Notes: generated by a model from the letters alone, not told the origin. 64,000 nt of DNA from Flavobacteriaceae bacterium (GCA_030148025.1 JASBUG010000037.1:1-64000); one strand, 5' to 3'. Shown: positions 22,754-44,515, counted from the stretch's first letter. A program made the numbers and translations.

Positions 22754-23317
22754 ATGAAAAACTACATTATTCTTATTTTACTATTAAGCGTTTCTGTAAG
22801 TTTTGCTCAAAACAAAAGTGAAGCGTTACAATTTTGGGAATCCCTTCAAAACATTTGTGGAAAATCATTTGAAGGCACACTAGTATTACCTGAAAACGAT
22901 GAGCAATTTGGAGGAAAGAAATTAGTTATGCATGTACGTTCTTGTAATGAAAACGTTATTAAAATTCCCTTTTTTGTGGGTAAAGATAGATCCAGAACTT
23001 GGGTGTTAACCTATGAAAATGATCGTATTTTATTAAAGCATGATCATAGACATGAAGATGGTACTGAAGATAACATCACAATGTATGGAGGTAAAACTAC
23101 TAATGCTGGGCAAGCTACAATTCAAATTTTCCCTGCAGATGAAGAAACTAAACAGCTAATTCCAGCTGCATCTACAAATGTTTGGTGGATGACTTTAAAA
23201 GATCATGTGTTCAGTTATAATTTGAGACGTCTGGGAACACCAAGAGTATTTAGAGTTACCTTTGATCTTACAAAAGAAATAGAAACACCATTAGCCCCTT
23301 GGGGATGGAAAGATTAA
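22754..23317 (+). CDS. Secreted hypothetical protein
   Basis: Signal peptide (LLLSVSVSFAQ). No recognisable motif. Confidence 0.4.
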   Translation: MKNYIILILLLSVSVSFAQNKSEALQFWESLQNICGKSFEGTLVLPENDEQFGGKKLVMHVRSCNENVIKIPFFVGKDRSRTWVLTYENDRILLKHDHRHEDGTEDNITMYGGKTTNAGQATIQIFPADEETKQLIPAASTNVWWMTLKDHVFSYNLRRLGTPRVFRVTFDLTKEIETPLAPWGWKD

Positions 23318-24183
23318 TTTTTTTGAAGTTCTTTATTTGTTCTAATAATGGCTTGTTGATTTTTCCAATCAATCCATTTTTGCCCTTTCATACGCCGCAT
23401 TAGATTATCAAAATGACGCATTACAAATATATTATAAATGGCTTTTCCTAAGTTCTTTGGTTTTCTTGCTATGGCGCGTAAACTCATAGAGAACCCTGGA
23501 GTGATGTAGCGCATATAGTGCCACCAGCCTTCGGGCATATATAAAATATTTCCGTGTTCTAGATTTGCAACATAGCCTTTAGCATTTTTAAGTGCAGGCC
23601 ATTTTTCAAAATCGGGATTAGCAAAGTCTATATCTTCTCTAGTAATTAGAGAATGTGGAATCTTGTAAAGATGTTTGTTTTGTTTCTGGTCGAACAAAAT
23701 ACATTGCTTCTTTCCTTCAAAGTGGAAATGAAATATGTTGGCCAAATCTATGTCGTAATGCATGAAAGTATATGAGTTTGTACCTCCAAAGAATAGCATT
23801 GGTAAACCTTTCATTAATCTTAATCCAAAATCGGGAAATTTAAAATCTTTTTGTAATTGAGGGACTTCTTTTAGAATATTCCACAGAAAAATTCGAAATT
23901 TAGTAGGTTCTTTTTTCAAGAGATCAACATACTCACTCATTTTCATAGTGGCATGAGGTTCATTAAACCCATCTTTGTAATCTACAGGTCTGTCATCGTA
24001 TAAAGGAACTGTTTTATCGCCTGCAACATCTTTCATATAGTCCAAATTCCACTTAGAGTAAGCTGGCCAATCTTCAATAAAACGCTCAATAACTACTGGT
24101 TTTTGAGGTTTAAAGTAATTTTTAATAAACTCCTCTTTTGTAATGGTTTTAACTCTAGGAACTTCTTGAAGATTTAATTTCAT
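23314..24183 (-). CDS. Cupin-like / JmjC-domain protein
   Basis: FFGGTNSYTFMHYDIDLANIFHFHFEGKKQCILF matches the JmjC/cupin_8 metal-binding pattern (H.D...H). Confidence 0.55.
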   Translation of the reverse strand: MKLNLQEVPRVKTITKEEFIKNYFKPQKPVVIERFIEDWPAYSKWNLDYMKDVAGDKTVPLYDDRPVDYKDGFNEPHATMKMSEYVDLLKKEPTKFRIFLWNILKEVPQLQKDFKFPDFGLRLMKGLPMLFFGGTNSYTFMHYDIDLANIFHFHFEGKKQCILFDQKQNKHLYKIPHSLITREDIDFANPDFEKWPALKNAKGYVANLEHGNILYMPEGWWHYMRYITPGFSMSLRAIARKPKNLGKAIYNIFVMRHFDNLMRRMKGQKWIDWKNQQAIIRTNKELQKN

Positions 24184-24291: not shown

Positions 24292-24326
24292 GAAAAAAGG
24301 CATTTCAATGGAGTTTGAAATGCCTT
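24292..24326 (-). terminator. Rho-independent terminator of bioB
   Basis: A perfect 11 bp stem (aggcatttcaa / ttgaaatgcct) with a U run on the minus strand. Confidence 0.7.
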
Positions 24327-24352
24327 TGTATAGTATTGTAAAAGCTATCTGT

Positions 24353-25447
24353 TTACTTAAGTGCTTTAGCCTTAGTTTTAGCAGCTTCGTTACGTTCTAT
24401 TTTATGTTCAGGTCTGGACCATTTTGGTTTTTCGCCAAGCGCTTCAAATTTAGAGTCTTTAGCCTCAACTGTTGGAGGGTGTACATTTTTTAAGAAAGGT
24501 TTTTGCGGTTGTAACCCTAATGCCTTAAACATATCCATATCCTCATTTACATCAGGATTTGGAGTTGTAAGTAGCTTGTCTCCGGCAAAAATTGAGTTTG
24601 CACCAGCAAAGAAACACATAGCTTGACCTTCGCGAGTCATTTGTGTACGACCAGCACTTAAACGTACTTGTGTTTCAGGCATTACAATTCGTGTTGTAGC
24701 CACCATACGTACCATATCCCAAATTTCAACAGGCTCTTCATCTTCCATTGGAGTACCATCTACAGCTACTAAAGCGTTGATTGGTACAGATTCTGGTTGT
24801 GGGTTTAATGTAGACAAAGCTACGAGCATTCCAGCACGATCTTCTTCTTTTTCACCCATACCAATAATACCACCACTACAAACGGTTACATTGGTTTTTC
24901 TAACATTGTCTATGGTTTGTAAGCGATCTTCAAATCCACGAGTAGAGATTACTTCTTTATAATATTCTTCAGAAGTATCCAAGTTATGGTTATAAGCATA
25001 TAGTCCAGCTTCTGCTAAACGTTGCGCTTGATTTTCGGTAAGCATACCAAGGGTACAACAAACTTCCATATCTAGCTTGTTTATGGTGCGTACCATTTCT
25101 AATACCTGATCAAATTCAGGACCGTCTTTTACATTTCGCCAAGCGGCTCCCATACAAACTCTGGAGCTTCCAGAAGCTTTCGCACGTAAAGCTTGTGCTT
25201 TTACTTGCTGTACGCTCATAAGGTCGTTCCCTTCAATGTCGGTATGATATCTTGCAGCTTGTGGACAGTATCCACAATCTTCAGGGCAACCACCAGTTTT
25301 GATAGACAGTAATGTGCTTACTTGTACCACATTAGGATCGTGATGCTTACGATGTATGGTTGCTGCTTCATAAAGCAACTCCATTAGTGGCTTATTATAT
25401 ATTTCTAGAATTTCTTCTTTGGTCCAATTGTGTTTCATTTCACTCAT
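24353..25447 (-). CDS. bioB: Biotin synthase (radical SAM), with a ~45 aa basic C-terminal extension
   Basis: CPEDCGYCPQ radical-SAM cluster motif. Overall BioB pattern. Confidence 0.9.
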   Translation of the reverse strand: MSEMKHNWTKEEILEIYNKPLMELLYEAATIHRKHHDPNVVQVSTLLSIKTGGCPEDCGYCPQAARYHTDIEGNDLMSVQQVKAQALRAKASGSSRVCMGAAWRNVKDGPEFDQVLEMVRTINKLDMEVCCTLGMLTENQAQRLAEAGLYAYNHNLDTSEEYYKEVISTRGFEDRLQTIDNVRKTNVTVCSGGIIGMGEKEEDRAGMLVALSTLNPQPESVPINALVAVDGTPMEDEEPVEIWDMVRMVATTRIVMPETQVRLSAGRTQMTREGQAMCFFAGANSIFAGDKLLTTPNPDVNEDMDMFKALGLQPQKPFLKNVHPPTVEAKDSKFEALGEKPKWSRPEHKIERNEAAKTKAKALK

Positions 25448-25502
25448 GCTGCAAAAATAAGAAAACAGAAGTTTAGGAGCTCTTTTTTTGGGGAGTATAA
25501 AT

Positions 25503-25530
25503 AAAAAAACTCGCTTTTAAAGCGAGTTTT
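25503..25530 (-). terminator. Rho-independent terminator of the flotillin gene
   Basis: A ctcgctt / aagcgag stem with a U run on the minus strand. Confidence 0.55.
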
Positions 25531-25534
25531 GGTA

Positions 25535-26959
25535 TTAATCGGATTCTGAGCTTTGATTCTCAGTTTCTTCTTCCTCTTTGTTTTTTTGTTGTTTCCCTTT
25601 AAGGTATTCAGGGAGTTCCATGCCAGCCATATTAAACATTTCTTGTAATGGTGGAACCGATTGGTACAAGCCAGAAAGGAAATTTGCTGTCGAGGTTTTT
25701 CCATCTTTTGAATTGCCGCCTTCCCAAACAGTAACCTTATCAATTTTAATGTTCTTGATAGCTTCAGCTTGAGTTTTTACTAGTTCAGGTAACTTGTCTG
25801 CAATCAATAACAATGCAGCATCTTGAGAATTGTTGCCAGCTGCCTTTACAATTTGATCTAAACCAGCTGCTTGCTTTGTTAATACTTCATAAAGTCCTTG
25901 TGCTTCTGCTTGTGCTTTAAAAAGGATCGCATCAGCTTCACCTTTTGCACGGCGACGGATTCTTTCAGCTTCAGCTTCAGCATCAATTTCAACCTTGCGT
26001 TTATCAATTTCAGCAGGAACAATGATATCAGCTAATTGAGAAGAACGTTCACGATCTGCTCTAGCAACTTCGGCATCTTGTTCAGCTGCATAAGATTCTT
26101 CAAGTGCTTTTGCCGTTTGTACTTTCTCTGAAGCAATTGCTAAACGCTCTGCTTCTGCTTCTCGTTGTCTACGTTGAGCATTGGAATTGGCCATTTCAAT
26201 TTTTGCCGTATTTTCTCCATCTACTGCTTTTGCATTGGCAGCTGCTACTTGAGTTCTTTCATCTTGAAGTGCATTTGCTTCACCAATAGAACCATCTCTG
26301 GTTTTTTCGGCTACAGATTTACGAGCCGCGTTTATTGCATGAGCAGCAGCTTCTTTACCAAGTGCCTCTATATATCCAGATTCGTCAACAATATCGGTAA
26401 TGTTTACGTTGATGAGTTTTAAACCAACCTTTTTAAGCTCAGATTCCACACTCTCAGAGATATTACTCAAAAATTTATCTCTATCTGAGTTAATTTCTTC
26501 AATATCCATAGATGCAACTACTAAACGTAATTGTCCAAAAATGATTTCTTGAGCTAGTTCTTGGATTTCATTTTGACCTAAACCAAGTAAACGTTCAGCA
26601 GCATTTTGCATAATTCCTGGCTCTGTTGAAATACCAATGGTAAATCGTGAAGGTACATTAACTCTAATGTTTTGCTTACTTAATGCATTTACTAAATTTA
26701 CTTCTATTGAAATAGGAGTTAAATCTAAAAATTCATAGTCTTGAATGACTGGAAGAATAAAAGCAGCTCCACCATGTATACATTTAGCAGATTTACCACC
26801 ACCTACTTTTCCATAAACCACAAGGATTCTGTCAGAAGGACAGCGTTTATATCTACGGATTAATACTATTATTAAAATGAAAATAAATAGAATTGCAAAC
26901 CCAATAGTTATAAGTGAGCCAAAGCCTTCGAGTCCTTGCATTAAAAATATGTTACGCAT
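25535..26959 (-). CDS. Flotillin-like SPFH/band-7 protein (YqiK-like)
   Basis: N-terminal TM segment, SPFH domain, long Ala/Glu-rich coiled coil and an acidic C-terminus. The start is taken at MRNIF to remove the overlap with NfeD. Confidence 0.75.
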   Translation of the reverse strand: MRNIFLMQGLEGFGSLITIGFAILFIFILIIVLIRRYKRCPSDRILVVYGKVGGGKSAKCIHGGAAFILPVIQDYEFLDLTPISIEVNLVNALSKQNIRVNVPSRFTIGISTEPGIMQNAAERLLGLGQNEIQELAQEIIFGQLRLVVASMDIEEINSDRDKFLSNISESVESELKKVGLKLINVNITDIVDESGYIEALGKEAAAHAINAARKSVAEKTRDGSIGEANALQDERTQVAAANAKAVDGENTAKIEMANSNAQRRQREAEAERLAIASEKVQTAKALEESYAAEQDAEVARADRERSSQLADIIVPAEIDKRKVEIDAEAEAERIRRRAKGEADAILFKAQAEAQGLYEVLTKQAAGLDQIVKAAGNNSQDAALLLIADKLPELVKTQAEAIKNIKIDKVTVWEGGNSKDGKTSTANFLSGLYQSVPPLQEMFNMAGMELPEYLKGKQQKNKEEEETENQSSESD

Positions 26960-26963
26960 ATAA

Positions 26964-27542
26964 TTATTTTTTAAGTTGTTCAACAATTAATATCCCGTTT
27001 GAAGTAATATCAGTTACTTCGATAACGGTTCCAGTTTTTAAATCGATGTCATGGTTTGTTAGTGCTTCCAGTTCCCTTAAAGCTCCTTGAACCTTAACCA
27101 TCACTTTTCCAATTTTTGATTGGTTTGCTCCTATAGGTAAGTAAACCTCTCCAATAGCACCTTTAGCATTCTTTAGCTGAAGAGTACCACTACTTTTCAA
27201 TTTGCTTATTTGTAACACTAAAAATGCCATAATGAACATCATTACTAAACCACAAATTGTAGAAATAATAATAGTTAACGGTTTAGAAATATCAGCATCA
27301 ATGCATGAAATACCAGACCATCCAAAAATTGTAAAAAATGCTACGAGATTTTTAAATGAAAAAAACTGAAAGCCAATTCCGGTATCGCCATCAATGTCAG
27401 CATCGACATCACCATCTATATCGTCTCCATCTGCACCCATGATAGTTGAAATTAAAACGAAAATAAAAAGGAGTGACCCAATACCAGCTATAATCCAATA
27501 TGCTTTCTCAAATACAGAAAGCGCAGAAAACCATTGTTCCAT
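26964..27542 (-). CDS. NfeD-like membrane protein (YqiJ-like), partner of the flotillin
   Basis: TM segments plus a C-terminal OB-fold-like region. Sits immediately upstream of the flotillin, the classic yqiJ-yqiK arrangement. Carries an acidic repeat (GADGDDIDGDVDADIDGDTG). Confidence 0.6.
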   Translation of the reverse strand: MEQWFSALSVFEKAYWIIAGIGSLLFIFVLISTIMGADGDDIDGDVDADIDGDTGIGFQFFSFKNLVAFFTIFGWSGISCIDADISKPLTIIISTICGLVMMFIMAFLVLQISKLKSSGTLQLKNAKGAIGEVYLPIGANQSKIGKVMVKVQGALRELEALTNHDIDLKTGTVIEVTDITSNGILIVEQLKK

Positions 27543-27639
27543 AATACCAAATTTTAAGTGTTAGAAATATAGAAACTTTGCTCAAGTAAAGCAAAATTTA
27601 TCCACAACATTTTTAAGAAAAAACTTTCTCGAAATGAGG

Positions 27640-28842
27640 TTATTTAGAAAGTAAGACGGACACAGCATTTCCTCCAAACCCAACCGCATTAACTAGTATG
27701 TTGTTGATGTTTTTTGGAGTTTGACTATTATTTAAAGGTGTTGCAACGAATTGTTGTTTTTGAAGCATAAGAATCGCGAGTTCTATACTTAACATCCCTG
27801 AAGGCCCTAGAGTATGTCCTACTTTCCACTTATTAGTAGTTAATGCAGGAATTTTGTTACAAAAAATTGTTTTAATTGCGTTTATTTCAGCAAGATCACC
27901 TTTTACAGTACCAGGTGTGTGGGTTACAATTATATCAATGTCTTCAGGTGGAACCTCTCCTAAAGCCATACGCATAGAGTCTTGGAAACATTGTGCATTT
28001 GTAGATAGAGAAGCATTGTGTTCTAATACCTCTGTAGCATAGCCAATTCCCTTAATTATGGCTAAGGCATTAACTTTTTTACCTTGCTCTAAACAAGCAA
28101 CCGAAGCACCTTCACCTAAAATCATGGTGTTTTTTTTCTTTTCGGTATCTAGTGCTTTACATGGATAATTTTTATATCCTTTGGAATAGATTTTTAGTGC
28201 CTGCATTTGAGCCACAGTAAACGACGTTAATGGCGCTTCACTACCACCAACTAAAAATTTATCGGTCATCCCCGAATTGATCCAAGCCACACCATTTAAC
28301 AAGGCGTGAAGTGCAGTAGAACAAGTAATAGAATGACTAATTTCTGGCCCTTTGGTTTGGAGATCATGTGCTACCCAAGTAGAAATATTACCGAGTGTAG
28401 TTGTTGGTGATGACAAAGTGTTGGTTTTATTTGTCCCCAAAAATTCCTTGTAATAGTCTTCAAATAATTTTGTGGCACCTCGTGAAGAACCAATGTTAAT
28501 ACCAAAGTTGTCACTACCATTCCAACCGGCCATTTTTATAGCATTTCTGGACGCAAAAATTGCAAAAAGTACAGAGTTATCTAAGGATCTATATTTGTTG
28601 TCAGACTTCTTGAGTGCTTCTATTTCTTCTTTCAGGATATTTGGTAAAAATGCAGCAAGTGCTTTTCCGTGTGAGAATGTATTCTCAGTAAAACAGTGTA
28701 AGTTGTTTAGATAGTTTTCCCAAACAGTATCAAGGTCACTTCCTAAAGGAGAAACCGAACTAATTGCTGTTATTGAAATAGGTTTGTGCACTTGTTTTTT
28801 CTTTCGGCAAAAATACAGGTATTTAAAAAAGGAGCATAGCAA
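27640..28842 (-). CDS. Beta-ketoacyl-ACP synthase I/II-like condensing enzyme
   Basis: Cys-His-His triad motifs are present: CSTALHAL, HTPGT, GHTLGPSG and GFGGN. The real start may be the GTG at 28791 (VHKPISITAI). Confidence 0.65.
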   Translation of the reverse strand: MLCSFFKYLYFCRKKKQVHKPISITAISSVSPLGSDLDTVWENYLNNLHCFTENTFSHGKALAAFLPNILKEEIEALKKSDNKYRSLDNSVLFAIFASRNAIKMAGWNGSDNFGINIGSSRGATKLFEDYYKEFLGTNKTNTLSSPTTTLGNISTWVAHDLQTKGPEISHSITCSTALHALLNGVAWINSGMTDKFLVGGSEAPLTSFTVAQMQALKIYSKGYKNYPCKALDTEKKKNTMILGEGASVACLEQGKKVNALAIIKGIGYATEVLEHNASLSTNAQCFQDSMRMALGEVPPEDIDIIVTHTPGTVKGDLAEINAIKTIFCNKIPALTTNKWKVGHTLGPSGMLSIELAILMLQKQQFVATPLNNSQTPKNINNILVNAVGFGGNAVSVLLSK

Positions 28843-28896
28843 AAATGTAACAATTAGATAGTATAAATGACTTACCTTTATAGAAAGCTATTATTT

Positions 28897-29328
28897 ATGG
28901 AACAAGTCAAGAAGAAAAGTTGGATTGGAAGAAATTGGCCATGGGTATTACCTGTTGGTGGTTGTTTAACAGTTATTTTTCTCCTTATTTTTGGGATTGG
29001 AGCTATATTTTTTGGAGTTACTAAAGCTATAAAGAATTCTACACCTTACGAATATGCAGTTGAGCTTGCGCAAAACGATCCTGATGTTATTAATGCTTTA
29101 GGTGAACGAATAGAAACAGACGGGATGCTTAGTGGTAATATTTCTATTAATAATGATGGAGGTGATGTTAATTTTGTAATTCCATTAAAAGGATCCAGAG
29201 GCAAAGGTTCGTTGACTGTAATTGGAGAGAGAATTGATGGCGAATGGGTTTATGAGGAACTCTATGTATTAGTAAAGGAGACCAACGAAAAAATTAACCT
29301 ATTAGAAAAAATATTAGAGGGAATCTAA
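28897..29328 (+). CDS. Coa1-like (cytochrome oxidase assembly factor 1 family) small membrane protein; paralog 1
   Basis: KSWIGRNWPWVLPVGGCL TM anchor followed by a small domain. It is a paralog of 41943-42377. The start is taken at MEQVKKKSW. Confidence 0.45.
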   Translation: MEQVKKKSWIGRNWPWVLPVGGCLTVIFLLIFGIGAIFFGVTKAIKNSTPYEYAVELAQNDPDVINALGERIETDGMLSGNISINNDGGDVNFVIPLKGSRGKGSLTVIGERIDGEWVYEELYVLVKETNEKINLLEKILEGI

Positions 29329-30579
29329 CGCTTTTTCAATGGTGTTATAAACCTTATCTAATTGCTTTTTTGTAATTACAAAAGGCGCTAAAATATAAAT
29401 GGTATTTCCTAACGGACGTAAGCAAACCCCATTATCCATAAAGAATTTGAACAGCTTATTTCTCAAATTTCCATAGCGTTCCATTTCAATATCTAGATCA
29501 AGTGCGTATATGACACCTAGTTGACGAGTTCGAGCTACTTTAGGATGTTTTTTGATATGCACATCAAAAGTTTTATGAGCTTCAATAATTGTTTGAATGT
29601 TAGCTTGAATGTCTTCAGATCGCAATAATTCGATTCCCGCCAGAGCAGCAGTACATGCTATTGGATTAGCCGAATAGGTGTGCCCATGAAAAAACCCTTT
29701 TGCAATATCATCACTTAAAAAAGCATTGTATATTTTTTCAGAACAAGATGTAATTGCCATTGGCACCAAGCCTCCTGTTAAAGATTTAGCTAAACATATA
29801 ATATCTGGTTGATTGGTTAAATGTTCTGAAGCAAAGTGTTTCCCTGTTTTCCCAAACCCAGTCATGACTTCATCTGCAATAGCTAAGGCACCATATTCTT
29901 TGACAATATCAAGCAATTCATCTAAGAGATCTGCATCATACATTTTCATTGCTGCAGCTCCTTGCACTAAAGGTTCATAGATAAAGGCTGCTACTTTTTC
30001 GGTTTTAAGTATTTCAACGAGTTGTTGTTTAACTGACTCAAAATTATCTTTAGTTGGTACTGGAATTCTAGCAACGTCAATAAAAAACTCTTCAAAAGGA
30101 CCATTGTAAACCGATAATCCAGAAACACTCATAGCTCCAAAGGTATCACCATGAAACCCATCTTCTAAGGCAATAATTTTTCCACGTTTTTCACCATTAT
30201 TAAAATGGTATTGTAATGCCATTTTAATAGCCACATCTACAGAGGTAGATCCGTTATCACTAAAAAATACTTTTTCCTGATTCTTTGGAAGAATATCTAT
30301 TAGAGCTTCCGATAATTTTATAGCAGGTTCATGTGTAAATCCAGCAAATACCACATGATCTAGTTGCTGCATTTGTTCAGCAACTTTAGAGGTTATATAA
30401 TCATTACAATGTCCATACATGCAAGTATACCAGGACGCAATTCCATCAATATATTCATTGCCTTGTTCGTCAAACAATAAAGCTTCTTTTGCTTTAGTTA
30501 TCGCTAAATGATCTGGATGTAATTTATGCTGTGTTAATGGGTGCCACAGATGTTTTTTATCGCGTTCTTGTAATGACAT
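29314..30579 (-). CDS. bioA: Adenosylmethionine-8-amino-7-oxononanoate aminotransferase
   Basis: HLWHP...DGIASWY...FSDNGSTSVDVAIKMALQY...GFHGDTFGAMSV matches BioA closely. Confidence 0.9.
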   Translation of the reverse strand: MSLQERDKKHLWHPLTQHKLHPDHLAITKAKEALLFDEQGNEYIDGIASWYTCMYGHCNDYITSKVAEQMQQLDHVVFAGFTHEPAIKLSEALIDILPKNQEKVFFSDNGSTSVDVAIKMALQYHFNNGEKRGKIIALEDGFHGDTFGAMSVSGLSVYNGPFEEFFIDVARIPVPTKDNFESVKQQLVEILKTEKVAAFIYEPLVQGAAAMKMYDADLLDELLDIVKEYGALAIADEVMTGFGKTGKHFASEHLTNQPDIICLAKSLTGGLVPMAITSCSEKIYNAFLSDDIAKGFFHGHTYSANPIACTAALAGIELLRSEDIQANIQTIIEAHKTFDVHIKKHPKVARTRQLGVIYALDLDIEMERYGNLRNKLFKFFMDNGVCLRPLGNTIYILAPFVITKKQLDKVYNTIEKALDSL

Positions 30580-30622
30580 TTATTTCCTCTTAAAAGATGG
30601 GTCAAATGTACAATAGTCATAA

Positions 30623-32806
30623 TTAAAAATCCAATCTATAATTCATTTTAAAAGCAATTCCCCAGTTTTGACGGGCTATATGTTTATTGTAATTGTCCGA
30701 GATCACTAAATAGACGTACGATAGAGGTTTGTATTCCCATTGCAAACGACTGTTGATATTGAAATTATCAAACTGTGTATTGTATTGAATATAAGTCGTC
30801 CAGTTTAAACGATTGGAAAAGAAAACTTCTCCTGTAAAACGTGCCAAATGAAAGGTTTCATTACCTAGTTCTTTCAGGTCAATTCCATTTCGTTCGTAGC
30901 GCAACTGCAGTCGAGCTAAAGGCATCAGTCGATATTGAGTGTTTAGACTTATCTGGTTCTTATGTCCGCTGTAATAACTTCCATAGCTTATGTTTCCGCC
31001 GTATTGCAACTTTCTGTTCTTTGCAGAAGAATAGCCTAAACCAGCATCAAAGTAATTGTAGGTATTAGGTACAATAGCATTGCCATTTTTTAATGGATCG
31101 AAAGCATATTTCAAATTGACGTATTCATATCGAAAACCTCCAAAGAGAACAGATTGATCTTTAAATACCAAGTCGTTGTTCAATACTACAGTAGATTGAC
31201 TTAAATTACCTTCATCGTCCCAATAGGTATTGTTCCACAAATTCAAATAGCGATGGTTGTCAATCACCTTAGAGTTTTTGTAGAATTTAGTCAAACTGAT
31301 ACGCCCTCTGGACTGTGTGTACCCTTCTCTTATAACAGTGCCAGAAATAGCGTCGAAATTGTACAAACGCGGTACAAAACCTACGTCGGTAATATAGTTC
31401 TTTTCTACTTTTTTAATTCCCAGATAACCCGAAGCATTGATGTTATTATACCATACTCCTACGTTATAAAAATTGTTATCTTTTGAAACACCATTAGTGG
31501 CACTGGTTGCCAAATTTGCATGCCCAGTCCATTTCTTATTTTTTGATTGGTAGTTTAAGTTCACTCCACCCACTCTGTTGTAATCATCCAAAAAAGATAA
31601 GCCATCTGTTTCTTGCCTATTGATCACAAATCCGGTAGCCGTAAAAGACTTAGAGAGTTGCTGTTGTACTACCAAAGCTCCGTAATTCTGAGCGGCAGTA
31701 TCACCATTAGATTTTGTGGCTACATTCAATACACCCAACCGTGTTTTCTCGGTAATATTTCCTGAGAGCTTTAGACCAAAAGATATTTCATTATTAGCTC
31801 CAATCCTTCTTGAATAAAATGGATTGACTCCCCCTACACCTAAATTGTTAAACAGGTCGCTGTTTTCTAAAAAGAAGTTTCGACGTTCTGGAAAGAATAC
31901 TGAAAAGCGACTTAAGTTAGTGACTTGTCTGTCGACATCTATCTGTGAAAAATCAGGGTTGATGGTAGCATCTAGTTTTAATGAAGAAGTCACATTAACT
32001 TGAACATCTAAACTAGGTTTTACCATATCGTCTTTGGTATTATTCGACACATCTTCAGCGTGATTCATAGTTACGGAAGGTGTGACAGCAAATCGAGAAG
32101 ATTTGTTCTCTGAAAGATTTTCTACCTGAAATGGTTTGGTAAATCGCAAATCAAACAAACTATAATTACGATCAATAGGTGTATTAGTAGTCCACTCATT
32201 CAATTTGATGTTTCGCGTATTAAACAGTACTCCCCATTCTGATGATTCTGCTTTATATCCTAATGCTTTCAAAGGAATTTCTATTTCGTATATTTTTAGG
32301 TTTCCTTGCACAGAAGTTCTGGCATTCCATACCGTATTCCAACTCGTACTTACTCTAAAACCATCTCCTCGTCTGGCAAGCAATGCATCTACTAAAGCAC
32401 CTCCCATATTTACAATAAAGAAAAAACCTGACTGTTGCTGATTATAGGTATCTATCATGATAGCAAACGAATCGCTTTCCCCTCCAGTAACACGGATATG
32501 ATCCCGTTTTAAAGATCCGATTTGTACACGTGGAATACTATCGTGATACACTGCACCTATATATAAATTTTTCCCATTGTGAAACATCTTCACCTCTGTA
32601 GTATTGGACGCAGTTACTCCATTGTTGGGGACATAATTAAAGAAACCTCCTTCAGGGATTAACTCATTCCAAATAGGTTCATTTAATTGACCGTCTAACT
32701 CAATTTTCGTATCGTTAAAAATAATACGTCCTTTTTCTAATTCAGATTGTCCCTGAATTTGTAATGTTATTAAAATTAACCCTAATAGTATTATGATTCT
32801 TTTCAT
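30623..32806 (-). CDS. Outer-membrane protein with a CBM9-like N-terminal domain and a DUF5916 beta-barrel
   Basis: Signal peptide, the IELDGQLNEPIWNEL motif typical of CBM9-like/DUF5916 proteins, and a C-terminal aromatic residue (RLDF). Confidence 0.5.
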   Translation of the reverse strand: MKRIIILLGLILITLQIQGQSELEKGRIIFNDTKIELDGQLNEPIWNELIPEGGFFNYVPNNGVTASNTTEVKMFHNGKNLYIGAVYHDSIPRVQIGSLKRDHIRVTGGESDSFAIMIDTYNQQQSGFFFIVNMGGALVDALLARRGDGFRVSTSWNTVWNARTSVQGNLKIYEIEIPLKALGYKAESSEWGVLFNTRNIKLNEWTTNTPIDRNYSLFDLRFTKPFQVENLSENKSSRFAVTPSVTMNHAEDVSNNTKDDMVKPSLDVQVNVTSSLKLDATINPDFSQIDVDRQVTNLSRFSVFFPERRNFFLENSDLFNNLGVGGVNPFYSRRIGANNEISFGLKLSGNITEKTRLGVLNVATKSNGDTAAQNYGALVVQQQLSKSFTATGFVINRQETDGLSFLDDYNRVGGVNLNYQSKNKKWTGHANLATSATNGVSKDNNFYNVGVWYNNINASGYLGIKKVEKNYITDVGFVPRLYNFDAISGTVIREGYTQSRGRISLTKFYKNSKVIDNHRYLNLWNNTYWDDEGNLSQSTVVLNNDLVFKDQSVLFGGFRYEYVNLKYAFDPLKNGNAIVPNTYNYFDAGLGYSSAKNRKLQYGGNISYGSYYSGHKNQISLNTQYRLMPLARLQLRYERNGIDLKELGNETFHLARFTGEVFFSNRLNWTTYIQYNTQFDNFNINSRLQWEYKPLSYVYLVISDNYNKHIARQNWGIAFKMNYRLDF

Positions 32807-33041
32807 GTAAATAGATTAAAAATTCCAATGTTATGGCTTATGCAAAACACCGACGGGCAAATCTATATGAAGTATCTATTGCTGTTTTAAAAAGTAGACA
32901 GAGGAAGCTTTTTTGCATTTAGAAAACTACATTTGGGAGAAATCAAGTTTTGTCTTCTATATTACTGTTTTTAGCTACAAAAAATTAGGTTTTAGCTATT
33001 TATCATGTACAGCTTTATTAAAATTGTATTTTAGTGGACGT

Positions 33042-34109
33042 ATGAACAGGTCAAAAAACACATCCTCTTTTTTTAGTAATCCAACTGTTAATCACATCCT
33101 GTTTTGGATGGCTGTGTTTGTGTATTTTATAATTACCATCGAGATCCAGTATTTCGGCAGCTATACTGAAGCTATTGAGTCCAGAGCTATTTTGGTAAGT
33201 ATGCAAATTATTATAGCTTACTGCTGCCTTTATGTTTTAATTCCTAGATATTTAACCCCTAAAAAAAACGTACAATTTGTACTAGGGTTGTTTTTGTTAT
33301 TGGCTCTTACCTATACACTTTTCGTATGTATTATGGAGTTTTATTATAATCCAAAGTATTTTAAAAGCGAAGATCCTTCTGCTGTTTTTGATTCTCTTAA
33401 AGGGTTTAGGGATCACATTTTTAAAATAAGGTCCTTTGCTGGTAAATCGGTAAAATTTTTAACACCAACAATCTTACTGGTGATTGCTAAGTTTTATAAA
33501 GAAAAACAAGCCTATTTGCAGCTTAACGAGCAAAAAACATCGGCAGAGTTATCAGCTTTAAAACATCAATTAAATCCGCATTTTTTATTTAATACCCTTA
33601 ATAACTTATATGCCTTATCCATAAATAAATCGGACGAAGCTCCAGAGGTTATTGCAAAGCTTTCTGAAATGCTAGACTATATGTTGTATGGGTGTAATGA
33701 CAAATATGTGCCTTTGTCTAAGGAAATTGAACTTATAGACAATTATCTTGCTTTGGAAAAGATAAGATATGACGAAAGGGTAGCTATTCATTTTAAAAAA
33801 GACATTGAAATGAATGTAAATATTGCTCCATTAATTCTATTAACTTTTATAGAAAATGCTTTTAAACATGGCGTTTCTCAAGAGCTCAAAAAAGCTGATA
33901 TACATATTAACATAGCAGTTAAGAACAACTATATTCTATTTGATATTCATAACTCTATAGCTCAAAATAAACTATCTTTAAATAAGAATCCAATTGGATT
34001 AACCAATGTTAAAAAACAGTTGGATTTATTATATCAAGACGAATATTCTTTAAACATCAATGAAGAGAACAATCGCTTTAATGTATATTTAAAATTGCCA
34101 GTAAAATGA
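33042..34109 (+). CDS. Sensor histidine kinase, LytS/YehU family
   Basis: Multi-TM N-terminus and the His_kinase internal motif LKHQLNPHFLFNTLNNLYAL. The start is taken at the ATG at 33042. Confidence 0.75.
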   Translation: MNRSKNTSSFFSNPTVNHILFWMAVFVYFIITIEIQYFGSYTEAIESRAILVSMQIIIAYCCLYVLIPRYLTPKKNVQFVLGLFLLLALTYTLFVCIMEFYYNPKYFKSEDPSAVFDSLKGFRDHIFKIRSFAGKSVKFLTPTILLVIAKFYKEKQAYLQLNEQKTSAELSALKHQLNPHFLFNTLNNLYALSINKSDEAPEVIAKLSEMLDYMLYGCNDKYVPLSKEIELIDNYLALEKIRYDERVAIHFKKDIEMNVNIAPLILLTFIENAFKHGVSQELKKADIHINIAVKNNYILFDIHNSIAQNKLSLNKNPIGLTNVKKQLDLLYQDEYSLNINEENNRFNVYLKLPVK

Positions 34110-34804
34110 CCTATAAATGTTTAATTATAGACGATGAGAAACTGGCAAGAGGGCTGATTCAAACACATTTATCACAATTAGATGATTTTGAATTGATAGC
34201 CTCATGTGCCAGTGCAATTGAGGCAAGTAAAATATTGCAAGAAGAAACTATTGATTTATTGTTTTTAGACATTGAAATGCCTGTTTTAAAAGGTACAGAC
34301 TTCTTTAAAAATCTAGTGCATAAACCCAAAGTGATTTTTACAACAGCTTATAGAGATTATGCCGTAGAAGGGTTTGAACTAAATGCTGTTGACTATATTT
34401 TAAAACCTATTACTTTTCAGCGTTTCTTTAATGCCATAGAAAAGTTTAGAGCTTTACAAAAAGGAACTAATTCGGAACCAACTACCGTTACAACTTCAGA
34501 AAATAAAGATGCTTTTATTTATATAAGAAAAGACAGAAAACAGGTTAAGGTGCATTTAAATTCCATTTTATATATAGAAAGCTTAAAGGACTATATTAAA
34601 ATACATTTAGAAGAAGAAACACACGTAACAAAGTCTAGTATATCAGCTTTTGAAGAAAAGTTAGACGCTAGGTTTATTAGAGTGCATCGTTCTTACATTA
34701 TTAATAAAGATAAGATTACAGCCTATACCAAGAATGATGTTGAAATTGGGAAAATTGAAATCCCAATAGGCGACAACTTTAGGGGGAATTTCTCTGCTTT
34801 TTAA
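34106..34804 (+). CDS. LytTR-family response regulator
   Basis: REC domain (LIIDDE...D55 region) plus a C-terminal LytTR domain (IRVHRSYIIN). Confidence 0.8.
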   Translation: MTYKCLIIDDEKLARGLIQTHLSQLDDFELIASCASAIEASKILQEETIDLLFLDIEMPVLKGTDFFKNLVHKPKVIFTTAYRDYAVEGFELNAVDYILKPITFQRFFNAIEKFRALQKGTNSEPTTVTTSENKDAFIYIRKDRKQVKVHLNSILYIESLKDYIKIHLEEETHVTKSSISAFEEKLDARFIRVHRSYIINKDKITAYTKNDVEIGKIEIPIGDNFRGNFSAF

Positions 34805-35945
34805 AAAGATAGCTCAGATGAACAATACTCATACTTAAAAACACGCCTAAATATCCAATAAATAGTAACCACATTGTGGAGGTGTTGAATAATTTGTAGC
34901 TTAGGTTTGGGAACACTAAAACTGCTTCAGAAAAAAGAAAACTAATTATATAGAATACCCAAGTAATTGTATTGACTTTATGTTTTAATTCAACCCAAAT
35001 AAAAGGCACAAAAAGACCTAAGAATAATAGATGTAACCACGCAATTAATAAAAACCTACTCTCAACAACTTGATCAGCCAGATATGGATGACTTCCAATA
35101 ATGTTGCAAGATACAATTAGTAAAAGTGTACCATATAAAAACCGATATGATTTTTGTGTATGGATAAATGCTTTTCTAAATTTTAGAAGTATTACAAATA
35201 ATGCTATCGAACTTATAAATCCAATAAATTGAATGCTCCAGTGATCAAAACTATAATCTAAGGAATGTGCGTAAAGTCCAATAAGAGAAAAGGTAATGAT
35301 ATACACATGTTCCTTTTTAAAGATAACGGCAGATCGCTGAATAAGTATTGCTAATAGCCAAATAAAAAGAGAGCCAAAATATTGAAAATGTAAATAGAAA
35401 AATATGGCTTGTTGGTACCATGGTGATTCTTGCATTTCCATAGCCATTAAAGGACCTAAGCAGTAAGGACCTATAGATGAAATGAAGTGAAAAACAATTC
35501 CTATTTTAACTAACTGGGTTAATGGATTGTTTTTATTGATTCTTTTCCAAAGGCGTATTAAAAAGATATAGCTTACCCATAAATGTAGCGTAGAAAATAC
35601 AATGGAAAACAAAGCATATCCTTGAATAATAAAAGTGATTAACATTCCAAATACACAAACCTGTAGAGCTAGATAATATTTATAGGAACGCTTGTCAATG
35701 CCATCAGTAAAATTTGTCCATAGCAACACTACCAAAGCATTGAACAAAAACCCTAAAAGCATTACGTGTGAATGTGAATGCAATACATTTTTTAAAGGAA
35801 ACCCTGGAAGCTCGCCTGTAAAAGCATAGCGTAAAATAAGACCAATTGCTGCTCCTAAAAACCCCAAAAGTATGGGATAGAACCAGAGTTGTTTTTGTGT
35901 TATATTAGATTTCATTTCTTCGTCATGCTGAACTTGTTTCAGCAT
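34779..35945 (-). CDS. Polytopic membrane protein, possibly NnrS family
   Basis: About 12 TM segments. LHSHSHVMLLGFLFNAL resembles the NnrS WHxHEMxFG motif. The real start may be MKSN, 30 nt downstream. Confidence 0.35.
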   Translation of the reverse strand: MLKQVQHDEEMKSNITQKQLWFYPILLGFLGAAIGLILRYAFTGELPGFPLKNVLHSHSHVMLLGFLFNALVVLLWTNFTDGIDKRSYKYYLALQVCVFGMLITFIIQGYALFSIVFSTLHLWVSYIFLIRLWKRINKNNPLTQLVKIGIVFHFISSIGPYCLGPLMAMEMQESPWYQQAIFFYLHFQYFGSLFIWLLAILIQRSAVIFKKEHVYIITFSLIGLYAHSLDYSFDHWSIQFIGFISSIALFVILLKFRKAFIHTQKSYRFLYGTLLLIVSCNIIGSHPYLADQVVESRFLLIAWLHLLFLGLFVPFIWVELKHKVNTITWVFYIISFLFSEAVLVFPNLSYKLFNTSTMWLLFIGYLGVFLSMSIVHLSYLFKKQRNSP

Positions 35946-35954
35946 CTCACATAT

Positions 35955-36233
35955 TTAATAGTTCAAAGTTTCTAGATTTGGATTTAATTTTCTAATTAAA
36001 TTTAGTTTCCATTCTTTATGCCAATTCTTTAATTGTTTTTCTCTTTTTATTGCTTGTTCAATATCTGTAAACTCCTCAAAATAAATAAGGTCTTTAATTT
36101 GATACTTTTTTGTGAATTTTGATGCGACCTCATCGTAATGTTCATATAATCTTTTGGATAAGTTTGTAGTAACTCCAATATAGAAAGTCGTTCTATACTT
36201 ATTGGTTAATATGTAAATAAAGCTATTTTGCAT
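35955..36233 (-). CDS. Small GIY-YIG nuclease-domain protein
   Basis: IYILTNKYRTTFYIGVTTNLSKRLYEH carries the GIY-YIG motifs. Length 92 aa. It is flanked by palindromic hairpins. Confidence 0.7.
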   Translation of the reverse strand: MQNSFIYILTNKYRTTFYIGVTTNLSKRLYEHYDEVASKFTKKYQIKDLIYFEEFTDIEQAIKREKQLKNWHKEWKLNLIRKLNPNLETLNY

Positions 36234-36266
36234 AGATGCGACCCTGAAACGAGTTCAGGGTGACGA

Positions 36267-36884
36267 TTATAACTGCTTTAATATCTCTTGAAATTTATTA
36301 GCATATTCTTTAATCACGTTCTTATCAAAGTAAGGTTCTTCATCTATTCGTCCAATAACAGTCACATCAGTCATTTTTTTGATGATAGCTTCGGTTGTTG
36401 GATGTTCGTTTCCACTAAAAATAATCGAGATATTAAACCCTTTTTCTTTTAAAGCATTAACGGTTAAAAGTGTATGATTAATACTGCCAAGATAATGCCT
36501 TGAAACTACAATCACTTGATAATTAGGTTTTATAATATCTTGAATAGTGTCTTTATCATTTAAAGGAACTAGTAGTCCACCAGCGCCTTCAATTACCAAG
36601 TGGTTCTTGGTTTTAGGCTCCTTAATTTGCTTTAACTCTATACTCACATTATCAATGTTGGCAGCTGCATGCGGACTCATAGGTGTATGCAAAGCATAAG
36701 AATTAGGGTGAAATATTGACTTAGAATTGGAAATAAAATTCTCAACTTTTCGGGTGTCACAATTATCTAATTCGCCTGCTTGAACAGGTTTCCAATAATC
36801 TGCTTCAAGTGCTTCTGTAACTATAGCTGATGCAACTGTTTTTCCTACCTCGGTCGAAATACCTGTTATAAAAATACGCTTCAT
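36267..36884 (-). CDS. bioD: Dethiobiotin synthetase
   Basis: IFITGISTEVGKTV P-loop with the BioD pattern. Length 205 aa. Confidence 0.85.
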   Translation of the reverse strand: MKRIFITGISTEVGKTVASAIVTEALEADYWKPVQAGELDNCDTRKVENFISNSKSIFHPNSYALHTPMSPHAAANIDNVSIELKQIKEPKTKNHLVIEGAGGLLVPLNDKDTIQDIIKPNYQVIVVSRHYLGSINHTLLTVNALKEKGFNISIIFSGNEHPTTEAIIKKMTDVTVIGRIDEEPYFDKNVIKEYANKFQEILKQL

Positions 36885-37261
36885 TAAAATATGGTTTTAC
36901 AGTCGTTGCAGATATATTTTGTCTTTTCAAAAAAAGGGAACAGCATAAAAAATATATTCTTACGCTCTAGAGGTGCAATCAATGCTCGCGTAGAATTGCA
37001 ATTTGTACAATGTAAAGCATTACCATTTTTGTCTTTTTGATACTCTCTAATGTTGTTGTAGATATCTACAGCTTTTTCAAAGTCATCATTAAAAACAAGT
37101 AATTTCACACCTCCTATGGCTTGACTTATAAGAGGATCGGAATCAATGGTTTTTTCATCCATAAGCATTGTTCTAATGCCTTCCGATTCCAGTTTAGAAG
37201 TGGTTACTTGTGCTTCTGTTGAGTATTCAAAAACAGCCAGTACTTTATAGTTGTCTTGCAT
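36884..37261 (-). CDS. DUF2007-like domain fused to a C-terminal Cys4 zinc ribbon, embedded in the bioF-bioD operon
   Basis: KVLAVFEYSTEAQVTTSKLESEGI...VFNDDFEKAVDIYN has the DUF2007 pattern. It is followed by CTNCNS...CNDC. The stop and start overlap its neighbours. Confidence 0.45.
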   Translation of the reverse strand: MQDNYKVLAVFEYSTEAQVTTSKLESEGIRTMLMDEKTIDSDPLISQAIGGVKLLVFNDDFEKAVDIYNNIREYQKDKNGNALHCTNCNSTRALIAPLERKNIFFMLFPFFEKTKYICNDCKTIF

Positions 37262-37263
37262 AG

Positions 37264-38412
37264 TTAATTTATTTCTTTTACAAAAGTAGCTAAGAGCGCC
37301 AACACTTTTGTTATTTCTTTTTCGGTATTATAGCTGTGAATACAAAATCGTAAACGTTCTTCACCTTCAGGAACAGTAGGAGACATAATCGGCTTTACAT
37401 CAAAGCCGTTTTCTTGCAAATGATTGGCAATGGTTTTTACGTTGTTATTTCCTGAAATAATACACGATTGAATTGTCGATACACTTTCAATAAAATGCTT
37501 TTCAATATTCAAAGCTCTTAATTCGGACTTGAAAAATGAGATGTTTTTATGAACTTTTGAAATTGCTTCAGAACCTATTAATAGGTTGTAAGCAGTATGA
37601 ATTGTAGCTAGAGAATGAGGCGGTAAACCTGTGGTATAAATAAAGCTTCTACAGAAATTTACTAAATACTGTTTTAGCAAAGTACTGCCTAATACTGCAG
37701 CACCATGGCAACCTAGCCCTTTTCCAAAGGTGACAATGCGAGCAAAGATATCATGCTCTAATTCTAACGATTGAACTAAACCACAACCATTCTTTCCGAA
37801 AACACCAAGAGCGTGAGCTTCATCAACAATTAGGTAGGCGTTGTAATCTTTACACAGGGAAGCCAATGCAACTAGGTTTGGAGTATCACCATCCATTGAA
37901 AATATTGATTCGGTAACCACATAAATATCATGATTCCCATTAGAAACACGATCGATCATTTTATCAAGATCGACCAAATCGTTGTGTTTAAATTTATAGG
38001 ATTTGGCTTGACTCATGGTAATACCATCCCGAATAGAAGCATGAATTAGCTCATCATACAGAATAACATCACCACGTTGTGGAATGGCTCCAAAAAGACC
38101 TAGGTTAGCATCATAACCTGAATTAAAAATTAGTGCCGATTCACTATCGTGAAACTCACATAATAACGCTTCACAGGTATCATATAACTTATGATTTCCA
38201 GTTAATAATCGTGATCCAGTCGCTCCATTTTCAAATCCATGATCAAGTAAATATTGATGCGCTTCTTTAAAAATGATTTCAGATTTTGAGAACCCTAAAT
38301 AATCATTAGTTGAAAAGTCAATCAATTCATTTTGAACTCCCAATTCACGTAAGGAATTGGTTGCTTTTCGCTGATCTAGCTTTCTCTGAAGTCTTTCTGG
38401 AAAATGTGTCAT
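37264..38412 (-). CDS. bioF: 8-amino-7-oxononanoate synthase
   Basis: STNDYLGFS and the PLP-lysine region (FGKGLG). Class-II aminotransferase. Length 382 aa. Confidence 0.85.
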   Translation of the reverse strand: MTHFPERLQRKLDQRKATNSLRELGVQNELIDFSTNDYLGFSKSEIIFKEAHQYLLDHGFENGATGSRLLTGNHKLYDTCEALLCEFHDSESALIFNSGYDANLGLFGAIPQRGDVILYDELIHASIRDGITMSQAKSYKFKHNDLVDLDKMIDRVSNGNHDIYVVTESIFSMDGDTPNLVALASLCKDYNAYLIVDEAHALGVFGKNGCGLVQSLELEHDIFARIVTFGKGLGCHGAAVLGSTLLKQYLVNFCRSFIYTTGLPPHSLATIHTAYNLLIGSEAISKVHKNISFFKSELRALNIEKHFIESVSTIQSCIISGNNNVKTIANHLQENGFDVKPIMSPTVPEGEERLRFCIHSYNTEKEITKVLALLATFVKEIN

Positions 38413-38423
38413 TGAGGCAAAGA

Positions 38424-38455
38424 TAATTAATGATTTTCAACCTTTTCATTAATTA
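38424..38455. promoter_or_regulatory. 10 bp inverted repeat (TAATTAATGA-N12-TCATTAATTA), 11-43 nt upstream of the bioF start; candidate operator
   Basis: Perfect palindrome read directly. The region is AT-rich, so chance is not excluded. Confidence 0.25.
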
Positions 38456-38514
38456 GCTTACAAGTCATTATTATCTTTTTTAGATAAAAAATTATTGTAA
38501 AACGATAATTTTAT

Positions 38515-41942: not shown

Positions 41943-42377
41943 ATGAATAATGAAATTTCTAGAAAAAGTTGGTTTTCAAGAAATAAATCTTGGGCACTTC
42001 CAACAGGAGGTTGTTTATTAGTTGTTTTGGTTGTGGTTTGTATAGCGCTCATGTTTTTTGTGGGCCTAAAGGAAACTGTTTTTGAATCTGGACCTTATAA
42101 ATATGCTGTAGAAGAAGCTTCAAACAATTTGAAAGTAAAAGAAGTTTTAGGAGATGATATTATTACAGAATCAATATTCAGCGGTAGAATAACTATAGAT
42201 AATGATCAACATGCAGATTTTAAAATCCCATTAAAAGGTAATAAGAGCAAAGGATTTGTTTTTGTAATTGCCGAAAGAGAAAATAAAACTCAGGATTGGC
42301 AGTATAAAAAACTGTATGTCATTGCTGAAAAATCAACAGATACGATCCACTTACTCAACTCTAGAAATACCGAATAA
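41943..42377 (+). CDS. Coa1-like small membrane protein; paralog 2
   Basis: KSWFSRNKSWALPTGGCLL TM anchor. A paralog of the gene at 28897. Confidence 0.45.
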   Translation: MNNEISRKSWFSRNKSWALPTGGCLLVVLVVVCIALMFFVGLKETVFESGPYKYAVEEASNNLKVKEVLGDDIITESIFSGRITIDNDQHADFKIPLKGNKSKGFVFVIAERENKTQDWQYKKLYVIAEKSTDTIHLLNSRNTE

Positions 42378-43677: not shown

Positions 43678-43688
43678 TAACTGTCAGA

Positions 43689-44047
43689 CTGAGCGCAGTC
43701 GAAGTCCAATGAAATATGAATTTTTATTATGTTTATATATTAAGATGTAATGATGACTCCTTTTATATAGGAATTACAAATAATATAAGTAAACGTTTCA
43801 ATGAACATCAATAAGGACTGGATAAAAATAGTTATACTTATAGCAGAAGACCTCTAATTTTGGAATTTAGCCAAGAGTTTAATGATGTTCTTCAAGCAAT
43901 TTATTTTGAAAAGAAGATTAAAGGATGGACTAGAGCAAAAAAACAAGCACTAATTAATGATGAATGGGATATGCTTAAGATTTTAGCAGAATGTAGAAAT
44001 GCGACACATTGTAAATATAAAGATTCAAGCGCTTCGACTGCGCTCAG
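43689..44047. mobile_element. Roughly 360 bp cassette bounded by perfect 16 bp terminal inverted repeats (CTGAGCGCAGTCGAAG ... CTTCGACTGCGCTCAG), carrying a GIY-YIG ORF; MITE-like
   Basis: The inverted repeats were read directly at 43689-43704 and 44032-44047. The cassette fills the umuC-umuD intergenic space. Confidence 0.55.
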
Positions 44048-44072
44048 CGGGACAAACCGAACAAAAACCTAA
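43716..44072 (+). pseudogene. GIY-YIG nuclease-domain ORF interrupted by an in-frame TAA at 43812-43814
   Basis: MNFYYVYILRCNDDSFYIGITNNISKRFNEHQ*GLDKNSYTYSRRP... The frame is continuous across the stop. It is a paralog of 35955-36233. Confidence 0.55.
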
Positions 44073-44074
44073 AT

Positions 44075-44515
44075 ATGTTAATAAAAGAAACTAAAAACCT
44101 CACGTTCTATACACCAGAAACAGTTAAGGATTCTGGAGCACTATTTTTTGATGCTGGAATTTCAGCAGGATTTCCATCGCCAGCAGAAGATTTTAAAGAG
44201 CATCGTTTATCACTAGATGAAGAACTGATAACTAATAAAGAAGCAACTTTTTTTGCACGTGTTAGCGGTCAATCAATGATCAATGCTGGATTAGATGATA
44301 ACGATTTATTAGTGATAGATAGAAGTCTGGAACCTACTCATAACAAAATTGCTGTTTGTTTTTTAGATGGAGAGTTTACCGTAAAACGGTTAAAAGTTGA
44401 AAATGATGGTGTTTGGCTACAACCTGAAAATGAAAATTACCAACCTATAAAAGTCACAGAAGAAAACAATTTTGTTATTTGGGGAATTGTTACAAATGTG
44501 ATAAAAAAAGTATAA
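44075..44515 (+). CDS. umuD: UmuD/LexA-like S24 peptidase
   Basis: An Ala-Gly cleavage site (ISAGFP), Ser nucleophile (SGQSM) and Lys (TVKRLK). Confidence 0.8.
   Translation: MLIKETKNLTFYTPETVKDSGALFFDAGISAGFPSPAEDFKEHRLSLDEELITNKEATFFARVSGQSMINAGLDDNDLLVIDRSLEPTHNKIAVCFLDGEFTVKRLKVENDGVWLQPENENYQPIKVTEENNFVIWGIVTNVIKKV

Follow-up and report, generated by a model that had tools for sequence, protein, structure and literature searches.

A FabF-related condensing enzyme in the biotin gene clusters of Flavobacteriaceae and its probable role in pimelate formation

How is the pimeloyl thioester made in a bacterium whose biotin locus holds the late genes of the pathway and no recognisable pimelate gene? 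Formation of this thioester is the variable and incompletely mapped part of biotin synthesis, for which four routes have been characterised: BioC/BioH, BioI/BioW, BioZ, and BioE. The question is raised by a 64-kb stretch of low-GC DNA (~33%) from a marine member of the Flavobacteriaceae (GCA_030148025.1 JASBUG010000037.1:1-64000), referred to here as the window, which encodes bioB, bioA, bioD, and bioF together with a β-ketoacyl-acyl carrier protein (ACP) synthase (KAS) of type I/II next to bioA (Table 1). An earlier note on this DNA suggested that this KAS could supply the pimeloyl-thioester precursor, and gene context, invariant catalytic residues, and an arginine in the predicted acyl pocket, Arg103, support that suggestion. 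We propose, with a probability of roughly 0.65, that KAS is a dedicated condensing enzyme serving the pimelate arm of biotin synthesis. The observed basis of this proposal is the membership of KAS in biotin operons, its intact catalytic set, its Arg substitution, and its paralogy to FabF.

The coordinates and minus-strand orientation given in the earlier note for bioB, bioA, bioD, and bioF were confirmed with NCBIfam models, the best match of bioF lying below its cut-off; a homolog of the window bioF fills the same position in 78 of the 82 related loci described below (tblastn). The KAS open reading frame (ORF) of 400 amino acids (aa) at 27640-28842 is likewise present, with the CSTALHA(L), HTPGT, and GHTLGPSG motifs that had been attributed to it, and it matches PF00109 (84 bits) and PF02801 (57 bits). 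The protein itself, however, probably begins at the GTG at 28791 rather than at the TTG at 28842, because its orthologs start with M-x-K-P-I-S-I-T and the shorter window protein would start with MHKPISIT. Its score against the fabF equivalog TIGR03150 is 139 bits, where the cut-off is 493.75, it falls under every NCBIfam KAS cut-off, and the FabH model NF006829 reaches E = 0.006 at best. The closest named homolog, from Pontimicrobium sp. SW4, is 79% identical, and E. coli FabF is 24% identical. An AlphaFold2 model built on a 99-sequence alignment (43-75% identity) has a predicted local distance difference test score of 89.5, and its top Foldseek matches are FabF and mitochondrial KAS, with template modelling scores of 0.87-0.90. 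Sequence comparison identifies the KAS family as a paralog of FabF and not as the housekeeping FabF, because identity to FabF is 24%, the NCBIfam cut-offs are missed, and a metagenomic Bacteroidota contig with a family member (L091, 3625-9026) also encodes a genuine fabF. On that contig KAS adjoins GDSL-lipase and MBOAT genes and lies 3 kb from a housekeeping acpP-fabF pair, whose FabF is 50% identical to that of E. coli. At NCBI the family carries only the name ‘beta-ketoacyl synthase N-terminal-like domain-containing protein’, and no NCBIfam model covers it.

The active site combines a conserved catalytic apparatus with an altered pocket. Counting His2 as residue 1, Cys156, His290, Lys320, His325, and Phe371 of KAS align with C163, H303, K335, H340, and F400 of E. 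coli FabF, and Cys156, His290, Lys320, His325, and the GFGG loop are invariant in all 137 representatives (37-64% identity) from which family conservation was read. The family signature GSSRGAT stands in place of the FabF sequence GSGIGG; within it, Arg103, which is aligned with FabF Ile108, is also invariant in 137 of 137. Gln194-Met195 align with FabF Gly-Phe202, and the family has SPxTTLGN where FabF has VPSTIVNM. In FabF, a ‘back gate’ made up of Ile108 and Phe202 lies near C7-C8 of the acyl chain bound in the pocket, and the I108F substitution limits the enzyme to short chains (PMC9006962). As judged from the alignment, Arg103 would shut the pocket and place a positively charged group a few carbons away from the thioester, an arrangement that suits a C5 dicarboxylate; with Arg replacing the hydrophobic Ile108, the pocket would thus fit a carboxylate-bearing primer.

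Gene context ties this enzyme to the late biotin genes. Two peptide patterns specific to the family, run against one genome per species, returned 553 stretches encoding a KAS relative, the 80 best of which, with two more from an exact look-up, make up 82 Flavobacteriaceae loci from genera that include Zobellia, Maribacter, Cellulophaga, Flavobacterium, Winogradskyella, Psychroserpens, Flagellimonas, and Kordia. Genes in these loci were counted by tblastn with the window proteins (Table 1). At most 30 bp separate bioA from KAS in 31 loci and at most 150 bp in 51, and in 17 of the 82 bioB comes no more than 150 bp after KAS. Mean identity across the loci is 67% for KAS, 68% for bioA, and 60% for bioF; KAS evolves at the rate of the biotin enzymes. 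The ancestral layout is a compact operon, bioF-(DUF2007-like)-bioD-bioA-KAS-bioB, because the bioA-KAS and KAS-bioB gaps are short in many relatives, and the window is such an operon split by lineage-specific insertions. The fragmentation of the locus described in the earlier note is thus real, but as a derived state it is uninformative in itself.

The association extends beyond this family of bacteria. A search of 50%-identity cluster representatives gave 381 clusters at E <= 1e-30, of which the top 150 representatives are 37-64% identical and score at least 230 bits, against ~100 bits for true FabF; a profile search from 111 distant representatives returned mostly Flavobacteriaceae, and a metagenome scan used a 6-sequence alignment. 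Contexts were examined for distant members with 40-50% identity to the window KAS and 37-62% GC. Four loci (L085, L088, L105, and L109; 37-61% GC) are self-contained bioB-bioF-bioD-bioA-KAS operons with unrelated flanks, and L106 reads bioF-bioD-bioA-KAS. The 3' end of bioA overlaps the start of KAS by 4 bp in L086 (62% GC). In L107, where NCBI labels the KAS protein ‘Candidatus Acidoferr...’, the order is bioB-x-bioF-bioD-bioA-x-x-KAS; the extra ORFs (x) were considered as pathway candidates and set aside, being surface- or outer-membrane-like instead. Through all of these layouts KAS is the sole companion of the four late genes, while the DUF2007-like ORF, Cupin_8, and flotillin drop out. 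Neighbourhood profiling, undertaken alongside the phylogenetic profiling that the earlier note had called for, therefore finds KAS in the biotin cluster in 79 of the 82 Flavobacteriaceae loci and again in differently arranged, distant clusters of higher GC. As part of what would speak against its idea, that note had also named a home for KAS mainly in polyketide, aryl-polyene, or flexirubin-type clusters; among the contexts examined, none of these cluster types holds a KAS relative.

Searches for known pimelate-pathway genes were negative. A Pfam scan of all ORFs of at least 120 aa in the 64-kb window detected no S-adenosylmethionine (SAM)-methyltransferase, BioH/BioG-type hydrolase, BioW, cytochrome P450, KAS III, or ferritin-like diiron protein, which bears out the observation in the earlier note that no BioC, BioH/BioG, BioW, BioI, or BioZ can be recognised there. 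A regular expression for the BioE diiron motif found nothing over the window; in the 82 loci it gave seven matches, all rejected as of the wrong size or overlapping recX or cupin genes, and no ORF of this type adjoins the biotin genes there. The MocR repressor BioL is present neither in the window nor next to the 82 clusters. E. coli BioC gave no tblastn match in the window or in 108 related loci, in which esterases were not sought. Long gaps between bioF and bioD in Flavobacterium loci were considered as hiding places for bioC and contain TraB/GumN-like, sigma-factor, and membrane genes. With E. coli AcpP and FabG as queries, tblastn gave no match within a biotin cluster of the related loci, the lone matches being the housekeeping acpP of L091 and a short-chain dehydrogenase/reductase upstream of bioF in L073. 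The compact biotin operons leave no space for further genes.

Several observations weigh against a role of KAS in pimelate formation. The pocket position of Arg103 is taken from sequence alignment and published FabF structures; the bioC negative covers the window and the related loci and the esterase negative the window, which leaves room for distal genes; and a search for an operator common to the bioF and KAS promoters found none. Synteny is shared by recX, an unrelated gene, in 63 of the 82 loci, and synteny at the family level is therefore weak evidence by itself; much of it could be inherited within Flavobacteriaceae, and it extends to Cupin_8 and flotillin genes, which have no evident part in biotin synthesis. 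Among the distant homologs, three (L087, L091, and L095) stand alone, apart from biotin genes and beside unrelated ones. In the window itself, the hairpins after flotillin and bioB and the TAnnTTTG boxes upstream of bioF, bioA, and bioB suggest four transcription units, and KAS appears to share its transcript with the NfeD-like and flotillin genes and not with the biotin genes, because the next terminator comes only after flotillin (25506-25530). Synteny, lone homologs, and the shared transcription unit would all fit a KAS with some minor lipid or secondary-metabolite role, whose position is inherited and has nothing to do with biotin. We consider this very improbable, since the bioA-KAS pair is kept over at least four layouts and from 32% to 62% GC, the 4-bp overlap included, where the other neighbours all change, and since no ACP, acyltransferase, reductase, or other lipid or polyketide synthase gene is linked to KAS.

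The room left for distal genes also admits a conventional BioC pathway, with bioC and an esterase elsewhere and KAS as an auxiliary that elongates malonyl- and glutaryl-ACP methyl esters. Part of this proposal is that the housekeeping KAS enzymes of Bacteroidota, adapted to branched chains, handle methyl esters poorly. Chain length would be compatible with it, as glutaryl-ACP methyl ester approximates a C7 acid and reaches the FabF back gate (PMC9006962). However, the invariant guanidinium, with Ser, Thr, and Gln at the gate, favours a charged over an esterified omega-end. Moreover, Bacteroides places bioC and bioG within its biotin cluster (PMC3494674), whereas the self-contained bioBFDA-KAS operons contain neither gene, and the BioC search described above was negative throughout. 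We regard an auxiliary role as unlikely.

For a dedicated pimelate-arm enzyme, we propose the following mechanism. A short dicarboxylic primer, with glutaryl-ACP and glutaryl-CoA as the likeliest, would acylate Cys156, and its free omega-carboxylate would be held by Arg103 together with the neighbouring Ser, Thr, and Gln that replace the Ile108/Phe202 back gate of FabF. His290, His325, and Lys320 would then decarboxylate malonyl-ACP, the presumed ACP-bound partner, and Claisen condensation would give 3-oxopimeloyl-ACP. Reduction to pimeloyl-ACP, the substrate of BioF, is expected to be carried out by the housekeeping enzymes FabG, FabZ, and FabI. Such a route would make both the methyl-ester disguise installed by BioC and the BioH/BioG esterase unnecessary. 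That most Flavobacteriaceae and several other lineages use a single-gene, methyl-ester-free pimelate route of this kind, with an Arg/Ser/Thr/Gln carboxylate clamp and a glutaryl/malonyl primer, seems to us to have somewhat better than even odds.

It is also possible, although we hold it to be doubtful, that KAS arrives at the same pimeloyl-ACP iteratively, starting from a malonyl-ACP primer that is not decarboxylated, instead of glutaryl-CoA supplied by lysine catabolism, and taking the chain through two condensations from C3 over C5 to C7, a scheme already put forward for Desulfovibrio. Iterative action on acyl-ACP primers is the norm for enzymes of the KAS I/II type, none of the clusters examined has a linked CoA-transferase or glutarate-activating gene, and the genetics of the FabF-like cluster of Desulfovibrio support methyl-ester-free elongation of malonyl-ACP (PMC10102598). 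Against this stands the location of Arg103, at the C7-C8 contact position, which suits a primer of five carbons better than one of three. As the clusters also lack a dedicated ACP, FabG, and FabZ, the reduction of 3-oxoglutaryl-ACP, a reaction for which we know of no precedent, would fall to housekeeping enzymes.

If KAS does serve the pimelate arm, a gap in the biotin pathway would be filled for hundreds of species, among them members of the Flavobacteriaceae, which are major marine polysaccharide degraders. It would add a further widespread pimelate pathway, convergent with that of BioZ and simpler than the Desulfovibrio system, and offer a compact one-gene module for biotin or pimelate engineering as well as a natural case of a fatty-acid ketosynthase pocket re-tuned toward a charged substrate. 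It would also bear on how prototrophy is scored: marine Flavobacteriia mostly carry bioFADB and have been counted as biotin prototrophs from bioFADB alone (PMC9561691).

Table 1. Features of the biotin region in the window, with the number of the 82 Flavobacteriaceae loci that contain each gene.
Feature	Position	Strand	Loci (of 82)	Details
Cupin_8 (JmjC-like)	23314-24183	-	52	directly 3' of bioB in these loci
Terminator-like hairpin, strong	24296-24327			3' of bioB, between bioB and Cupin_8
bioB, biotin synthase	24353-25447	-	72	TIGR00433, 407 bits (cut-off 225); Radical_SAM and BATS domains
TAnnTTTG box of bioB				bioB's own box; TATTTTTG
Terminator-like hairpin	25506-25530	-		3' of flotillin gene; 11-bp stem and T-run
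NfeD-like and flotillin (Band_7) pair	25535-27542	-	36	between KAS and bioB in these loci; NfeD-like without Pfam match
KAS I/II-like condensing enzyme	27640-28791	-	82	383 aa from probable start GTG 28791; maximal ORF to TTG 28842
Coa1-like small membrane protein, first copy	28867-29328	+	18	antisense, between bioA and KAS
bioA, adenosylmethionine-8-amino-7-oxononanoate transaminase	29314-30579	-	79 (directly upstream of KAS, same strand)	TIGR00508, 540 bits (cut-off 405)
TAnnTTTG box of bioA				just upstream of bioA; TACATTTG
Polytopic membrane protein	34779-35945	-		388 aa; ‘NnrS-like’ in the earlier note; no Pfam or NCBIfam match
GIY-YIG protein, stand-alone	35955-36233	-		92 aa; between bioD and bioA
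bioD, dethiobiotin synthase	36267-36884	-	78	TIGR00347, 121 bits (cut-off 83); PF13500
DUF2007-like protein	36884-37261	-	57	125 aa; weak PF09413 and NF040569 matches; between bioF and bioD
bioF, 8-amino-7-oxononanoate synthase	37264-38412	-	78	best NCBIfam match TIGR00858, 347 bits (under cut-off 426)
Imperfect 7-5-7 palindrome ATTATTG-N5-CGATAAT	38491-38509			~80-95 bp upstream of bioF start
Coa1-like small membrane protein, paralog of first copy	41943-42377	+		
Y-family polymerase (IMS domains) near Peptidase_S24 (UmuD/LexA-like) gene	42418-44515	+		few kb from biotin region

Several neighbours of the biotin genes deserve comment. DUF2007 proteins are putative signal-transducing, PII-like proteins. 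The DUF2007-like ORF is translationally coupled between bioF and bioD, and where it occurs its gaps to both genes are mostly 30 bp or less; a GGVKL motif and Cys pairs are conserved in it, and its C-terminal end carries a CPxC...CxxC ribbon. We class it as an accessory gene of the Flavobacteriaceae-type biotin cluster, operons of the bioBFDA-KAS type occurring without it; it could regulate the pathway or act in it as an accessory metal-binding factor. The Cupin_8 gene is unusually conserved (mean identity 79%, exceeding bioA, bioD, and bioF). Membership of this JmjC-like oxygenase in the pathway is unlikely, as a terminator parts it from bioB and bioBFDA-KAS operons exist without it; it is probably an unrelated conserved neighbour.

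Upstream of bioF, the palindrome is the sole match with at most one mismatch in the window, and at least 17 loci share this 7-5-7 element upstream of bioF, often with a second repeat rich in half-sites. It was sought upstream of bioA, KAS, and bioB and is absent there. We regard it as a candidate operator for a biotin regulator.

Pfam supports the flotillin, outer-membrane (DUF5916), LytS-type kinase, LytTR regulator, and GIY-YIG assignments made for the intervening genes in the earlier note, and the labels ‘NfeD’ (26964-27542) and ‘NnrS-like’ found no support in Pfam or NCBIfam. The 388-aa membrane protein carrying the latter label has homologs in Pontimicrobium (L001) and L003, where they sit between bioD and bioA. 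The GIY-YIG gene occupies the same spot in several genera (loci L005, L006, L008, L010, L018, L028, and L093-L099), is missing in others, and has the look of a small mobile or selfish element with the bioD-bioA intergenic site as its target. The first Coa1-like ORF overlaps the 3' end of bioA by 15 bp and keeps its position in the loci that have it. Farther away, the Y-family polymerase and Peptidase_S24 genes likely form an SOS mutagenesis module.

Among known systems, the nearest functional analog of KAS is BioZ, a KAS III-type 3-ketoacyl-ACP synthase encoded in alpha-proteobacterial bioBFDAZ operons, whose fifth gene makes the pimeloyl thioester (PMC7645780, PMC8024396). Both are paralogs of fatty-acid condensing enzymes encoded by a fifth gene after bioA, and the gene order of L085, L088, L105, and L109 mirrors bioBFDAZ. 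BioZ bypasses BioC and BioH, its product is reduced by housekeeping FabG, FabZ, and FabI, and its residues S84, R147, and S287 neutralise the glutaryl carboxylate at the bottom of the tunnel (PMC8024396). The activity that marks BioZ is the joining of glutaryl-CoA to malonyl-ACP, together with complementation of E. coli bioC/bioH mutants. BioZ, however, has the FabH fold, a Cys-His-Asn set, and an acyl-CoA primer, whereas the KAS family has the FabF fold and Cys-His-His with Lys. The resemblance would be convergent, because BioZ is of the FabH fold, and homology between the two would reach back only to the thiolase superfamily.

For a KAS I/II-type enzyme in a biotin cluster, the closest precedent is the extended bio cluster of Desulfovibrio vulgaris, which Rodionov (2004) is said to have reported. 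By barcoded transposon sequencing (RB-TnSeq), biotin synthesis was shown to require a FabF-like gene, an ACP, and FabG/FabZ-like genes of this cluster, DVU2558-2565, and a pimeloyl-ACP route free of methyl esters, with a less hydrophobic active site, was proposed (PMC10102598). As in the clusters described here, a KAS I/II-type gene (DVU2563) sits among late biotin genes, in genomes that lack bioC and bioH. The Desulfovibrio cluster differs in having a dedicated ACP, a FabG-like reductase, FabZ-like dehydratases, and a required nitroreductase-like gene, and in its distribution among anaerobes of a few phyla; the present clusters carry KAS alone and belong mostly to aerobic Bacteroidota. In this comparison DVU2563 is represented by its published description, not its sequence.

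FabF (KAS II) and mitochondrial KAS (OXSM) share with the family the fold, the two Pfam domains, the Cys-His-His-Lys set, and the GFGG loop. KAS differs in its 20-27% identity to them, a length ~30 residues shorter, scores below the FabF and FabB cut-offs, and, relative to FabF, Arg and (Gln)Met instead of the Ile108/Phe202 back gate. Weeksellaceae, the sister family of Flavobacteriaceae, offer a parallel in another form. There too, within the Flavobacteriales, a missing pimelate route goes with an extra gene in the biotin cluster, but the enzyme involved, BioE, is a diiron oxygenase of the ferritin-like type that cuts long acyl chains, and BioL acts as a MocR repressor (PMC12704756, PMC12915131). 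The BioC-BioH/BioG pathway of E. coli and Bacteroides also ends in pimeloyl-ACP made with the aid of the fatty-acid synthesis machinery, and differs in requiring a SAM methyltransferase and an esterase and in having no dedicated KAS.

Set beside these systems, the ‘undescribed pathway’ of the earlier note divides in two. Full-text literature searches found no paper describing this KAS family in biotin operons; as a pathway type it is preceded by the FabF-like KAS of the Desulfovibrio cluster (PMC10102598). What is known is condensing-enzyme-based, methyl-ester-free synthesis of pimeloyl-ACP, and what appears to be new is the KAS family.

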